A stretch of DNA of 64,000 bases, taken from assembly GCA_003223415.1 (NCBI GenBank), contig QHUY01000017.1, positions 6,739 to 70,738 of the forward strand. The letters are read 5' to 3'. The position numbers and the translations under genes are program-made. The stretch is from Gemmatimonadota bacterium (GTDB lineage: Bacteria; Gemmatimonadota; Gemmatimonadetes; Gemmatimonadales; GWC2-71-9). Below the pieces are notes generated by a model. It did not search any database. It was not told the origin of the DNA and saw only the letters and a program-made list of their open reading frames with translations. Of this stretch, positions 47,203 through 59,374 are shown piece after piece. The first letter of the stretch is position 1. Each line of letters opens with the position of its first letter.

Positions 47203-47559
47203 TCAGCGGCTCATCAGCCTGCGGATCAGGCCGATGGTCATCGCCACGACTCGTTCGCATAGGTCGATGCACGGTTGGAGTTCTGTTTCGGGCATGAGGC
47301 CCAGGCTCTTGAGGAGTGTAAGGTGACTGAGCAGCTCTGTAGACGAGCCCAGAGCTATCTTCAAGCACCGAACGAACTGCGCGGTGGTTCCGAGCGCATA
47401 CCCTTCTGCGATGTTCGCGGGGATGGAGATCGCGGCTCTACGGATCTGATCGACGAGTGCGAAGTGCTTGGAAACGGTTGGGGTGGTGGTCAGCAGGTAG
47501 GCTGCCCGCGCGAGCTCCTGGGCTCCGCGCCAGGTATCCAACTTCTGGAGTCTCCGCAT
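47203..47559 (-). CDS. four-helix-bundle protein (TIGR02436 / 23S rRNA intervening-sequence protein / Avd-like family)
   Basis: 118 aa starting MRRLQKLD. Family signature AISIPANIAEGYALG...IALGSSTELLSHL. Visibly AT-richer than its neighbours. The rest of the 241-aa tracked ORF is translated repeat. Confidence 0.85.
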   Translation of the reverse strand: MRRLQKLDTWRGAQELARAAYLLTTTPTVSKHFALVDQIRRAAISIPANIAEGYALGTTAQFVRCLKIALGSSTELLSHLTLLKSLGLMPETELQPCIDLCERVVAMTIGLIRRLMSR

Positions 47560-55616: not shown

Positions 55617-56343
55617 AGAGCATGACGGGCACCGTGCGGGCCATGATCCACAGGTCGTGCATGACCGACTGTCGCGCGATGTACTCGAGATCGTAGGACA
55701 CCTTGCGGCGCACGTCCTCGATGGAGCGGTCGTAGTGATTGTTGATCTGCGCCCACCCGGTGATCCCGGGCCGCACGCGCTGCCGGCTCTCGTAGCCGTC
55801 GATCATCTCGCGGAGCTCGAGAAAGATCTTTGGCTGTTCCGGCCGCGGGCCCACGACGTTCATGTCGCCGCGCAGCACGTTCCACAACTGCGGCAGCTCG
55901 TCGAGCCGGTACTGCCGCAGCAACCGCCCGATGGGCGTCACCCGCGGGTCCTCGGGTCGCGCCCAGACCTGATCGTCGGCGCGGCCCGGGCGCGTGGCCA
56001 TCGTCCGGAACTTGTAGATCCGGAACGGCGCGCCGCCGTGGTCCCAGTCGCGGCGATGGTTCAGCGATACCACCTTGGGATCCCGCCGGTCGAGGCCGAT
56101 GCGCGTCTGCGTGTAGAGCACCGGTCCTTTGGATGTCACCTTGATCAAGACGGCGATCAGGGCCATGAGTGGCGCCGCGAGCACCAGGCCGATGGCGGCT
56201 ACCACGACATTGAGCAGGCGCCGAGGCAGCTCCGCGACCGGGCAGAAAACGGTCGCCGGCGCCGGCTTCCAGACCAGGCGAAGGCTGCGCGGCTGCCATG
56301 CAGGTCGAGCGGTCTGAACCGCGATGCTGGTGGCGGGTGGCAT
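55597..56343 (-). CDS. polyprenyl-phosphate sugar phosphotransferase (small bacterial sugar transferase)
   Basis: Has GPVLYTQTRIG, YKFRTM and DELPQLWNVLRGDMNVVGPRP. N-terminal start uncertain. Confidence 0.8.
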   Translation of the reverse strand: MPPATSIAVQTARPAWQPRSLRLVWKPAPATVFCPVAELPRRLLNVVVAAIGLVLAAPLMALIAVLIKVTSKGPVLYTQTRIGLDRRDPKVVSLNHRRDWDHGGAPFRIYKFRTMATRPGRADDQVWARPEDPRVTPIGRLLRQYRLDELPQLWNVLRGDMNVVGPRPEQPKIFLELREMIDGYESRQRVRPGITGWAQINNHYDRSIEDVRRKVSYDLEYIARQSVMHDLWIMARTVPVMLFKKGAC

Positions 56344-56570: not shown

Positions 56571-57527
56571 GTGGAGCGCGCCTATCTGATGGGCGCGCCG
56601 CGCAAAGGCAGCGACGACGCGCTGCGCGCCGAGGAGCATCTCGACGAGCTGGCGCGGCTCGCCGACACCGCCGGCGCCGCCGTCATCGGCCGCACCTTCC
56701 AGCGGGTCGACGCCCCCACACCGAACTACTTCCTCGGGGCTGGCAAGGTCGAGGAGCTGAAGAGTCTGCTGGGCGCCGCCGGGGCGACGCTGCTGCTATT
56801 CGACGAAGGCCTCTCCCCGGTGCAGGGCGTCAACCTCGAGCGGGCGCTCGGCATCCGCGTGATGGACCGGACCGAGGTCATCCTCGACATCTTCGCGACC
56901 CGCGCGCGCAGCCACGAAGCGAAGCTCCAGGTCGAGTTGGCGCAGCTCGAGTACCTGTTGCCGCGTCTCACGCGGATGTGGACTCACCTCTCGCGGATCC
57001 GCGGCGGCATCGGGCTGCGGGGCCCGGGCGAGACGCAGCTCGAAACGGACCGGCGCGTCATCCGCAAGAAGATCTCCACTCTACGGCGGCGGCTCGAGGA
57101 CGTGGCCGACCACCGCGCCAACCAGCGCCAAGGACGGCGCGACCTGCCCAGCGCCGCCCTGGCCGGCTACACCAACGCCGGCAAATCCAGCCTGCTGCGC
57201 GCGCTCTCAGGGGGAGGGGCCGACGTGTTCGTCGAGGACCGGCTCTTCGCCACCCTCGACACCCTCACCCGCGAGGTGGAGGTGGGGGACAACTACCGCG
57301 TCCGCCTCACCGACACTGTCGGGTTCATCCGCAAGCTGCCACACCACCTCGTCGCGTCGTTTCGCGCGACGCTCGAGGAGGCGCGCGAGGCGGACCTGCT
57401 GCTGCACGTCATCGACGCGGGACATCCGGCGTGGGAGGAACAGGTGGAGGTGGTGGACCGGGCGCTCATCGAAATGCGGAACTCGGAACTCGGAACGCGG
57501 AACGACAGTGGCAGTGCGGAGCGCTAG
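56571..57527 (+). CDS. hflX: GTPase HflX, N-terminal 318 aa ending at an in-frame TAG
   Basis: HflX N-domain, G1 GYTNAGKSSLL and G3 DTVGF. The frame continues after TAG 57525-57527 into the next ORF. Confidence 0.8.
   Translation: MERAYLMGAPRKGSDDALRAEEHLDELARLADTAGAAVIGRTFQRVDAPTPNYFLGAGKVEELKSLLGAAGATLLLFDEGLSPVQGVNLERALGIRVMDRTEVILDIFATRARSHEAKLQVELAQLEYLLPRLTRMWTHLSRIRGGIGLRGPGETQLETDRRVIRKKISTLRRRLEDVADHRANQRQGRRDLPSAALAGYTNAGKSSLLRALSGGGADVFVEDRLFATLDTLTREVEVGDNYRVRLTDTVGFIRKLPHHLVASFRATLEEAREADLLLHVIDAGHPAWEEQVEVVDRALIEMRNSELGTRNDSGSAER
57471..57505. repeat. GGAACTC/GGAACGC heptamer array in frame in hflX
   Basis: GAAATGC GGAACTC GGAACTC GGAACGC GGAACGA, translated as EMRNSELGTRN. 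Confidence 0.75.
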
Positions 57528-57539
57528 CGCGTCATTCAT

Positions 57540-57899
57540 GTGTTCAACAAGGCGGACCTGCTACCCGATCCGGAGGCGTTCCTCGCCCAGGTACGAGAGC
57601 GGTATCCCCACGCCGTGCTCACCTCATCTGTTCCGCATTCCGCATTCCGCACTCCGCATTCAGGTGTTGAGGGGCTGCGGGCCGTCCTCCGGACCTCCGC
57701 CCAGGCCCTCCGCCCCATCGCCCAGATCCGCGTGCCCCTGGCCGACGGCCGGCTGCTTGCCAACCTGCATCGTGACGCCGAGGTTATGGAGCAGGTGCAG
57801 ACCGATGGCGTCGTCGTGATCACCGCGCGGGTGGAGGCCAAGCTCTTGGGCAAGCTCCGCCGGGAAGGGGTGGAGGTGCTGTTGGGAACCGAGTTGTGA
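57540..57899 (+). CDS. hflX: HflX C-terminal fragment (G4 NKxD onward), same frame as 56571-57527
   Basis: VFNKADL is the G4 motif. The GVEGL (G5 region) follows the second repeat arm. Confidence 0.6.
   Translation: MFNKADLLPDPEAFLAQVRERYPHAVLTSSVPHSAFRTPHSGVEGLRAVLRTSAQALRPIAQIRVPLADGRLLANLHRDAEVMEQVQTDGVVVITARVEAKLLGKLRREGVEVLLGTEL
57627..57661. repeat. CGCATTC heptamer array (reverse orientation) in frame in hflX
   Basis: TCTGTTC CGCATTC CGCATTC CGCACTC CGCATTC, translated as SVPHSAFRTPHS. Nearly identical to the arm at 2566-2586. Confidence 0.75.
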
Positions 57900-59374
57900 T
57901 ACGGACCGCGGCGGCTGGTGCGTCCCCAGTTTCGGTGCAGCTCGGCCTGCAGCAGCAGGCGCCGTCCAACCTCCGCCGCCACGTCGCTCGCGAAGCGCTC
58001 CGGGTCGGTACCGTGTTCGCGGCCGATTTAGTCTCGTTCGTCACGATGCGCGCCTTCGTGCAGGCGGTCCGGGACGACCGCGTGCTCGGCGACGGCATCG
58101 CCCACCTGTTGCAGGTCGTCCTGGCGCGCGGCATCCTGAACGGCTGGCAGTTCGGCGTGGCGCTCGTGATCGCGCTGCTGGTCACGGGCAGCTACGGCCC
58201 CGGCGACCGGCGGCGCGACCCGCGGCGCCTGTTCGCCGCCGCCGCGCTCGCGACGGCGATGCCCATGTGGGCGGCCCTCTGGACCCGCGGCGTGGATCTC
58301 ACCCTGCTGCAGTACGCGGTCACCGCGGGGCTGGTCTGGATCGGCCTGCTCAGCGAGCGGCGGGCGACGGGGGTGCTGCTGGCCCGGCTCGGGCCGCCGG
58401 AGCATGAGGGGGCGCGCACGCTGTTCGTCGGCTCCGAGGCCGCGTGTCGCGAAGTGATGGCGCACGAGGCCGTGGGATTCGTGGACGTGGACAGCCCGCC
58501 GTCGCCCCGCGCGCTGGGACACATCGCGCAGTTCCCGGCGCTGCTGCACGCCGCGGCCGCCGACACGGTGGTGGTGTGCGGTCACCCCGGCGACGCCCGC
58601 CTGCGGGGGCTGGTCGCGGCGACGCTGGCGGCAGGGTGCCGGCTGCTGATCGCGCCGGGCACGCTGGAAGCGACGGGCGCCAGCCCGGCGATCGTGTGGC
58701 AGGACGGCCAGGCGCTGATCGAGCTCACGACCCCCGCCCTCAAGGGGCGGCAGCTGCTGGTCAAGCGCGCGGTCGATCTGATCGGGGGGCTCGGCGGGCT
58801 GGTCCTCGCCTCCCCCCTGATGTTGCTCCTCGCCGCCGCGATCAAGCTGGACTCGCCGGGCCCGGCGATCTTCGGCCAGGAGCGGATCGGCTCCGGCGGC
58901 CGGCGGTTCCGGGTCCTCAAGTTCCGGACGATGCGGCACGGCGCCTCGGACGCCGCCCACCGGGAGCTGATCCGGCGACTCCAGGCGGATGAGGTCGCGC
59001 CGCTTCCCCCGTCTCCCGTCTACAAGCTCGTCGACGACGACCGGGTGACGAGGGTGGGTCGCTGGCTGCGTCGCAGCTCGCTCGACGAGCTGCCGCAGCT
59101 GTTCAACGTGTTGCGGGGCGAGATGAGCCTGGTGGGACCGCGGCCCCCGGTGCCCTATGAGTTCGAGGGCTACGACCACTGGCAGTTCGACCGATTGCAA
59201 GTGAAGCCCGGGATAACCGGCCTGTGGCAGGTGTCGGGCCGCAGTCGCGTGAGCTTCCGGCAGATGTGCGAGCTGGACGTGGAGTATGTGCGCCGCTGGT
59301 CGCTCTGGCTCGACCTCCAGATCCTGCTGAAAACGATTCCCGTCGTGCTGTTCAACTCCGGCCGCGCCGCGTGA
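57896..59374 (+). CDS. exopolysaccharide polyprenyl glycosylphosphotransferase (large, WbaP/EpsB-like)
   Basis: N-terminal TMs, a central Rossmann-like region and a C-terminal PGPAIFGQERIG, LKFRTM, DELPQLFNVLRGEMSLVGPRP. Confidence 0.8.
   Translation: MIRTAAAGASPVSVQLGLQQQAPSNLRRHVAREALRVGTVFAADLVSFVTMRAFVQAVRDDRVLGDGIAHLLQVVLARGILNGWQFGVALVIALLVTGSYGPGDRRRDPRRLFAAAALATAMPMWAALWTRGVDLTLLQYAVTAGLVWIGLLSERRATGVLLARLGPPEHEGARTLFVGSEAACREVMAHEAVGFVDVDSPPSPRALGHIAQFPALLHAAAADTVVVCGHPGDARLRGLVAATLAAGCRLLIAPGTLEATGASPAIVWQDGQALIELTTPALKGRQLLVKRAVDLIGGLGGLVLASPLMLLLAAAIKLDSPGPAIFGQERIGSGGRRFRVLKFRTMRHGASDAAHRELIRRLQADEVAPLPPSPVYKLVDDDRVTRVGRWLRRSSLDELPQLFNVLRGEMSLVGPRPPVPYEFEGYDHWQFDRLQVKPGITGLWQVSGRSRVSFRQMCELDVEYVRRWSLWLDLQILLKTIPVVLFNSGRAA

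Follow-up and report, generated by a model that had tools for sequence, protein, structure and literature searches.

A private in-frame TAG in hflX of a Gemmatimonadales genome and the inverted heptamer arms around its G4-G5 segment

In the window analysed here, a stretch of 64,000 nucleotides from contig QHUY01000017.1 (assembly GCA_003223415.1), the reading frame of hflX is interrupted by a TAG codon close to two inverted heptamer arrays. This raises the question of what the stop codon is, and whether the arrays have anything to do with it. The first-pass annotation had put forward four options, namely a nonsense mutation, a two-piece HflX, stop-codon readthrough and a base-call error. The assembly comprises 3.53 Mb in 280 contigs and is 97.5% complete; judging by its nearest relatives it is the MAG of a soil Gemmatimonadales bacterium. 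At this completeness no second hflX copy was found in the genome, and hflX is single-copy. Very probably, the TAG is an unprogrammed single-base change from AAG (Lys) that is private to this MAG, and the heptamer arms are a separate matter. What the first-pass annotation had missed is that the arms are shared by a whole clade, are ancient and belong to a repeat family dispersed over the genome.

The frame from GTG 56571 to TGA 57897-57899 contains a single internal stop, as had been claimed, and the division of the GTPase motifs by this stop was also confirmed: G1 (GYTNAGKSS, 57165-57191) and G3 (DTVG, 57312-57323) lie 5' of the TAG and G4 lies 3' of it (Table 1). The 318-codon 5' part has Pfam matches to GTP-bdg_N, GTP-bdg_M and MMR_HSR1 (profile positions 2-99 of 113). 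Downstream of the TAG the gene is intact, and neither the translation nor the profile score points to further lesions. With the TAG translated as Lys, HflX scores 412.7 bits on the equivalog model TIGR03156 and lies above the cutoff of 216.75. It aligns to the ribosome-splitting GTPase HflX of E. coli (PDB 5ADY), residues 22-420, and the read-through protein shares the domain order and the G1-G5 motifs with it. In contrast to E. coli HflX, it carries two repeat-encoded loop inserts that are 12 and 7 residues longer, visible as gaps of these sizes in the alignment, and as encoded it is truncated before G4. A complete G1-G5 domain in one polypeptide is absent as encoded, since the ORF ends at codon 319 before G4 and G5; only readthrough of the TAG, or an error in it, would restore it.

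Table 1. Coordinates of hflX, its in-frame TAG and its heptamer arms in the window
Feature	Position	Strand	Description
hflX 5' part as encoded	56571..57527	+	318 codons + TAG; N-terminal domain, helical middle domain, G1-G3
Site-1 insert	57468..57524	+	57 nt vs 21 nt in insert-free relatives; encodes disordered alpha3-beta5 loop IEMRNSELGTRNDSGSAER
Arm 1, G-rich (T/G)CGGAAC x3.9	57477..57503	+	Translated in frame; TRF; inverted repeat arm 57473-57503
In-frame TAG	57525..57527	+	Private A-to-T change of Lys codon AAG; relatives AAG/AAA; L101-L103 read A at 57525
hflX 3' part	57528..57899	+	Same frame as 5' part; beta5-G4 (NKAD 57546-57557), alpha4, beta6-G5, alpha5, C-terminal domain
Site-2 insert	57630..57674	+	45 nt vs 24 nt in insert-free relatives; encodes loop after G5, VPHSAFRTPHSGVEG
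Arm 2, C-rich TTCCGCA x4.4	57631..57661	+	TRF; inverted repeat arm 57630-57660

The residue to be expected at the stop can be read from the orthologs. In the relatives the codon is part of the motif ERK-RV(I/V)(H/Y)VFNKAD, and the alignment predicts Lys, which is encoded by AAG or AAA in the 7 closest relatives. The 99 other hflX loci collected from Gemmatimonadales are free of premature stops; the short loci among them are contig-end run-offs or belong to distant lineages that naturally have no C-terminal domain. We also scanned JGI metagenome contigs with a 50-mer around the stop, in which the first stop base was left free. The scan yielded three independent contigs, Ga0209237_1004516 (L101), Ga0066665_10024696 (L102) and Ga0209056_10059769 (L103), which are 99.3-99.9% identical to the window and carry an intact hflX of 442 codons. 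The first-pass annotation had considered that a sense codon might in truth stand at 57525-57527, and in these three independent, near-identical assemblies one does, in each case AAG. Across hflX, L103 differs from the window only by the TAG base and one synonymous site. Hence the stop is not conserved in any of the other loci (0/99) or near-identical contigs (0/3). For the exact 318-aa product no match is on record in other assemblies. Of the four options, a nonsense mutation and a base or consensus error survive, both agreeing with a T confined to this assembly and an AAG in three near-identical contigs; the two-piece HflX and readthrough are not supported.

Outside hflX the near-identical contigs show length differences. 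L103 is without 63 nt (window 56123-56185) that are bordered by GAGCACC direct repeats and belong to the minus-strand gene upstream of hflX, and L101 is without 59 nt (window 58068-58126), a length that is not a multiple of 3, in the gene downstream of hflX. The two gaps are artefacts of assembly or, alternatively, deletions that arose between short direct repeats in the population. A further contig of 1.6 kb (VBAL01000249.1, L064) is filed as 'Bacillati bacterium ANGP1 isolate NP_4', and encodes an HflX N-terminus with 98% identity to the Gemmatimonadales gene studied here. The contig, which does not reach the stop position, is probably mis-binned in the 'Bacillati bacterium ANGP1' MAG.

Programmed readthrough or natural amber suppression would decode the UAG usefully and yield full-length HflX. 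The fully intact downstream frame agrees with this, and K, Q or S are tolerated at this position in relatives, so that near-cognate insertion would give an active protein; in addition, basal UAG readthrough exists in all bacteria. However, the stop is missing from all 99 other loci and from the three near-identical contigs, and none of the 57 tRNAs found by ARAGORN in the whole genome has a CUA anticodon. The sole special tRNA is a tRNA-SeC (anticodon TCA), given which the organism probably uses selenocysteine. TAG is moreover the second commonest stop of the confident long ORFs (286 of 1176, or 24%, compared to 746 TGA and 144 TAA), and a same-frame coding continuation is equally rare after TAG (4.5%), TGA (5.1%) and TAA (4.2%). 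Since arm 1 lies upstream of the stop, a stem between both arms would be no downstream readthrough stimulator, as it would already be melted by a ribosome standing at the TAG. We consider readthrough very improbable. The stop usage, the lack of a tRNA-CUA and the continuation frequency, which for TAG is not above that of TGA or TAA, also refute an alternative genetic code with TAG reassigned to a sense codon, a notion that has nothing in its favour beyond this one open continuation and deserves practically no credence.

Alternatively, the N-terminal 318 residues and a C-terminal piece starting at GTG 57540 could form an evolved two-piece HflX, that is a split GTPase. Split proteins are best tolerated at disordered surface loops, and according to the AlphaFold2 model the break falls into such a loop, with an in-frame GTG only 13 nt past the stop. 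On the other hand, all of the 99 other loci and the three conspecific contigs encode HflX in one piece. The nearest GGAG is located 18 nt upstream of this GTG, presumably too far for a usual Shine-Dalgarno sequence, and a restart there would remove most of strand beta5 in the model. A split HflX has therefore very little chance of being correct, and we prefer the unprogrammed, private change of AAG to TAG.

Within this preferred explanation, a real strain-level null allele of HflX has a slightly better than even chance, and a consensus or base error a chance slightly below even. A distinct real haplotype is plausible, because the other private differences of the window nearby are synonymous third-position changes. 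In E. coli, hflX is dispensable. HflX is a stress factor and not a core essential gene, which favours a real null allele. Strains deficient in hflX (KO) have been reported (10.1101/2020.03.13.990168), and according to a second source HflX is a heat shock protein by which ribosomes damaged by heat are restored (PMC6028529).

What a real TAG would mean for the protein can be judged from the AlphaFold2 model of read-through HflX (pLDDT 77.8, pTM 0.67). Both insert-encoded segments are modelled as low-confidence loops. Residue 319, the stop position, is the last residue of the low-confidence loop 305-319 (pLDDT < 50 for residues 308-316), which connects helix 288-304 to strand beta5 (320-326), and this strand leads into G4. 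If the TAG is real, the 318-residue product would end after helix alpha3 and would be without beta5, G4, alpha4, beta6, G5, alpha5 and the C-terminal domain (383-438). Due to the loss of G4, G5 and the C-terminal domain, the truncated HflX should be inactive as a GTPase.

The interrupted hflX matches the internal-stop 'pseudogenes' or interrupted CDSs known from MAGs, which go back to a private nonsense SNP or a consensus error. In common with these, one base creates the stop, the gene is otherwise intact and conserved, and near-identical assemblies have a sense codon. There is no material difference; a local oddity is that the stop stands in a repeat-derived loop, 22 nt past a heptamer array. 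The TAG itself is biologically unimportant and represents an internal-stop flag for annotators, neither recoding nor a split GTPase.

The first-pass annotation had implied that arms and stop are linked, but no link was found. The TAG stands past arm 1, where the loop no longer consists of repeats. That the stretch between the arms is hypermutable, and the TAG a consequence of this, was considered and rejected, since this middle segment outpaces its flanks equally with and without inserts: the ratio of middle to flank divergence in the insert-bearing and the insert-free clade is 1.37 vs 1.29 for nucleotides and 1.64 vs 1.73 for amino acids. Nor is there any sign that the arrays slip or vary in phase: in each arm, all three conspecific contigs have the same number of copies. 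The arms are not the cause of the stop.

The arms are of interest for other reasons. Inverted heptamer arms do flank the G4 segment, as the first-pass annotation had described, but the coordinates it gave exceed the arrays by a few bases. Arm 1 is reported by Tandem Repeats Finder as CGGAACT and arm 2 as TTCCGCA, and the repeat unit is better written (G/T)CGGAAC in arm 1 and GCGGAAT (as reverse complement) in arm 2. GCGGAAT is the commonest heptamer family in the census of this genome. The arms form a 31-nt inverted repeat and are separated by 126 nt of conserved host coding sequence with G4 and G5; the units of the two window arms differ (GGAAC[T/G] vs GCGGAAT), and the arms are only 81% complementary. 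The claim that the arms add residues to HflX was borne out by comparison to insert-free relatives (Table 1). Heptamer pairs of this pattern occur 12 times in the window, while 1.1 are expected from shuffles. In RNA MFE folds of the insert-bearing loci, arm 1 pairs with arm 2 (mean of 21.9 pairs, z = -2.8; 28 arm-to-arm pairs and z = -2.9 for the window), whereas insert-free loci show 2.9 pairs and z = 0.

A maximum-likelihood tree built from 89 HflX proteins unites the insert-bearing sequences in a single clade (54 rows, support 100/99), while the sister clade (33 rows) and the outgroup are without inserts and have short loops of 21 nt and 24 nt. Since all insert-bearing HflX fall into this one clade, the distribution fits a single gain of the arms at the base of a Gemmatimonadales sub-clade, and the pair would accordingly be old. 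Arrays are found at the same two hflX codon positions in > 40 genomes, but the unit is not the same. At least 8 unit types occur at these sites, comprising GCGG followed by AAC, AAT, ATT, AGT, GAT, CGT or GAG, and also GGGGAAT, and within any one genome the downstream arm reads as the reverse complement of its upstream partner. The complementarity between arms reaches a mean of 15.8 within genomes vs 8.2 between genomes, and none of 5000 permutations attained the observed value, in a test that ignores phylogeny.

Comparisons of sister taxa illustrate how the unit changes. Units ending in AGT and AAC distinguish L008 from L072 and likewise L021 from L030, AAC and ATT distinguish L027 from L038, and in each case both arms are concerned. 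For L056 (AAT) and L032 (AAC) the difference was seen in arm 1 only of L032, the arm 2 of which has decayed. L027 and L038 are sister taxa with flanks 89% identical, and every unit is switched in both arms. Because their arrays start at the same codons although all units differ, we infer that the units were rewritten in place and not lost and re-inserted. In L101, arm 2 alone is altered, from ATTCCGC to AATCCGC units, by 4 substitutions within 15 nt (equivalent to window 57638-57652), while no change is seen in arm 1 or the remainder of hflX and the sequence is otherwise 99.4% identical. As far as can be judged from the sequence, this looks like an ectopic conversion patch at a stage when the partner arm had yet to change.

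About a dozen lineages have one or both arms decayed or lost with an intact hflX, and arm decay in so many lineages argues against a strongly selected function. The sub-clade of L035, L039, L040, L041 and L053 has lost the site-1 insert, of which 15 nt are left, and its site-2 array consists of a non-GCGG unit (ACCACGC or ACGCACG); a partner arm was looked for, but no G-rich partner was found in the CDS of these five. Other loci have expanded. Arm 1 of L048 has grown to 114 nt with higher-order repeats of about 21 nt (RNAEFGM...), and the site-2 insert of L006 measures 126 nt and contains its own inverted pair of CGGGAGG and CTCCCGN arrays.

The hflX arms belong to a dispersed repeat family. 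This genome contains 108 period-7 arrays of at least 3 copies, compared to 5-23 arrays for the periods 5, 6, 8 and 9, and a looser threshold gives 236 arrays with a modal length of 4 units. About 100 of the 236, by a rough estimate, are located in long ORFs with coding-like GC3. Within 250 nt, 31 couples have the G-rich array before the C-rich one vs 8 the other way round; the median spacer is 38 nt. The hflX couple stands out, for its spacer is the second longest of the 31 couples and consists of conserved host coding sequence.

To compare the hflX unit with the family of its genome, three-unit patterns were counted in five genomes, the patterns being chosen from the hflX units themselves. 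In four of the five (G000, G001, G013 and G014) the hflX unit is that of the dominant family, while G002 did not clearly follow this rule. GCGGAAT has 70 matches in the genome studied here (G000) and 0, 6, 4 and 0 in the other four; GCGGGAG has 28 matches in G014 and 3, 2, 0 and 0 in the others; the dominant units of G001 and G013 are GGGGAAT and GCGGAGT, respectively. The test was repeated with the neutral pattern GCGGNNN x3 on five other genomes. G031, which is the genome of L026, gave 58 matches, almost all of them AAC, and G032, the genome of L038 and a close relative of L026, gave 53, almost all ATT; the hflX units are AAC and ATT, respectively. Agreement was weak in a third genome (AAT 4/7), and G033 and G034 have too few arrays to judge. 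Between close relatives, then, the heptamer unit is replaced across the whole genome, and the arms in hflX change with it. This genome also has 7 genes for PF05635 four-helix-bundle proteins, one of them in the window (~47233-47547, minus strand), as well as two matches to PF01797 (Y1_Tnp) with 66 and 33 bits.

That the hflX unit matches the dominant heptamer family of each genome points to a genome-wide concerted rewriting of the units. In our reading, the array unit, GCGG plus 3 variable bases, is overwritten again and again at the same sites, both arms being brought to the unit that dominates the genome. The arms stay complementary and are predicted to pair across the coding spacer from G4 to G5. 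The driver could be ectopic gene conversion from the dispersed pool or a trans-acting factor specific for the unit. In its strongest form, which we advance tentatively and hold to be possible rather than probable, a unit-specific machinery (a trans-acting protein or pervasive templated conversion) would maintain the arrays and rewrite all of them to the current unit, even in the coding sequence of essential genes, and would keep paired arms complementary across > 100 nt of host sequence. Selection for a stem specific to the hflX mRNA or DNA, for instance with a regulatory or thermosensing role, would by contrast preserve complementary arms through ordinary compensatory evolution and without any genome-wide rewriting. 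It would explain that arm-to-arm pairing is predicted in most insert-bearing loci (z of about -3 to -7) and that complementarity outlasted at least 8 unit switches, and it would suit the role of HflX as a heat-stress factor (PMC6028529). Yet a locus-specific constraint does not predict that the unit follows the dominant dispersed family of the genome. Whole arrays switch at once, the lineages with lost or degraded arms retain an intact hflX, and ~30 other couples of like kind exist in this genome. An hflX-specific stem is for these reasons an unlikely explanation of the arms, and rewriting in concert with the genome is the reading that we follow.

Cyanobacterial STRR heptamers are a related repeat type, Rickettsia palindromic elements (RPEs) insert in frame into protein genes as one contiguous insert of fixed sequence, and REP/REPIN elements with their cognate RAYT transposases are dispersed hairpins of lineage-specific sequence. 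Like RPEs, the hflX arms constitute a hairpin-forming repeat that is tolerated in a conserved gene via surface loops. They differ from them in that two separate tandem-heptamer arms flank host coding sequence and that the unit turns over; instead of a single contiguous palindromic insert there are two sites with 126 nt of orthologous hflX, including G4, between them. With REP/REPIN elements they share the dispersed, lineage-specific hairpins and an apparent genome-wide concerted evolution, but the arms are tandem arrays and not a single palindrome. The nearest published description of such repeats is that of convergent inverted heptamer pairs, (GGGAATC)n in Xanthomonas and GGGGA(C/T)T in Nostoc, which are reported to lie largely between genes and to be under-represented within coding sequence (Rehm et al. 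2015, PMC4692102). The family described here shares with these and with STRRs the G-rich units of 7 nt, a bias to ~4 units, the dispersal over the genome and stem-loop pairs of plus- and minus-strand arrays: 7-nt arrays of ~4 copies are over-represented, and convergent complementary couples are present. A preferential intergenic location does not extend to hflX, both arms of which are translated. Unlike the published pairs, the hflX arms are translated in frame, enclose 126 nt of conserved coding sequence and have stayed at one orthologous site through many switches, and their GCGG units make a G-quadruplex less likely. On a concerted switching of units in in-frame heptamer palindromes, nothing relevant was found in the open-access literature text.

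While the TAG of this assembly concerns annotators, the arms offer a rare orthologous series for the evolution of dispersed heptamer palindromes, a repeat class that is widespread and poorly understood. The series shows whole-array switching in place, the coupling of both arms and the tracking of the genome-wide dominant unit. Such coupled, genome-tracking switching argues against independent insertion or locus-specific compensatory mutation and constrains the mechanism towards conversion or a sequence-specific factor. If a unit-specific machinery as outlined above does exist, the hflX site would be a natural orthologous tracer of its action across dozens of species, as exemplified by the switch from AAC to ATT between genomes that are ~11% diverged.
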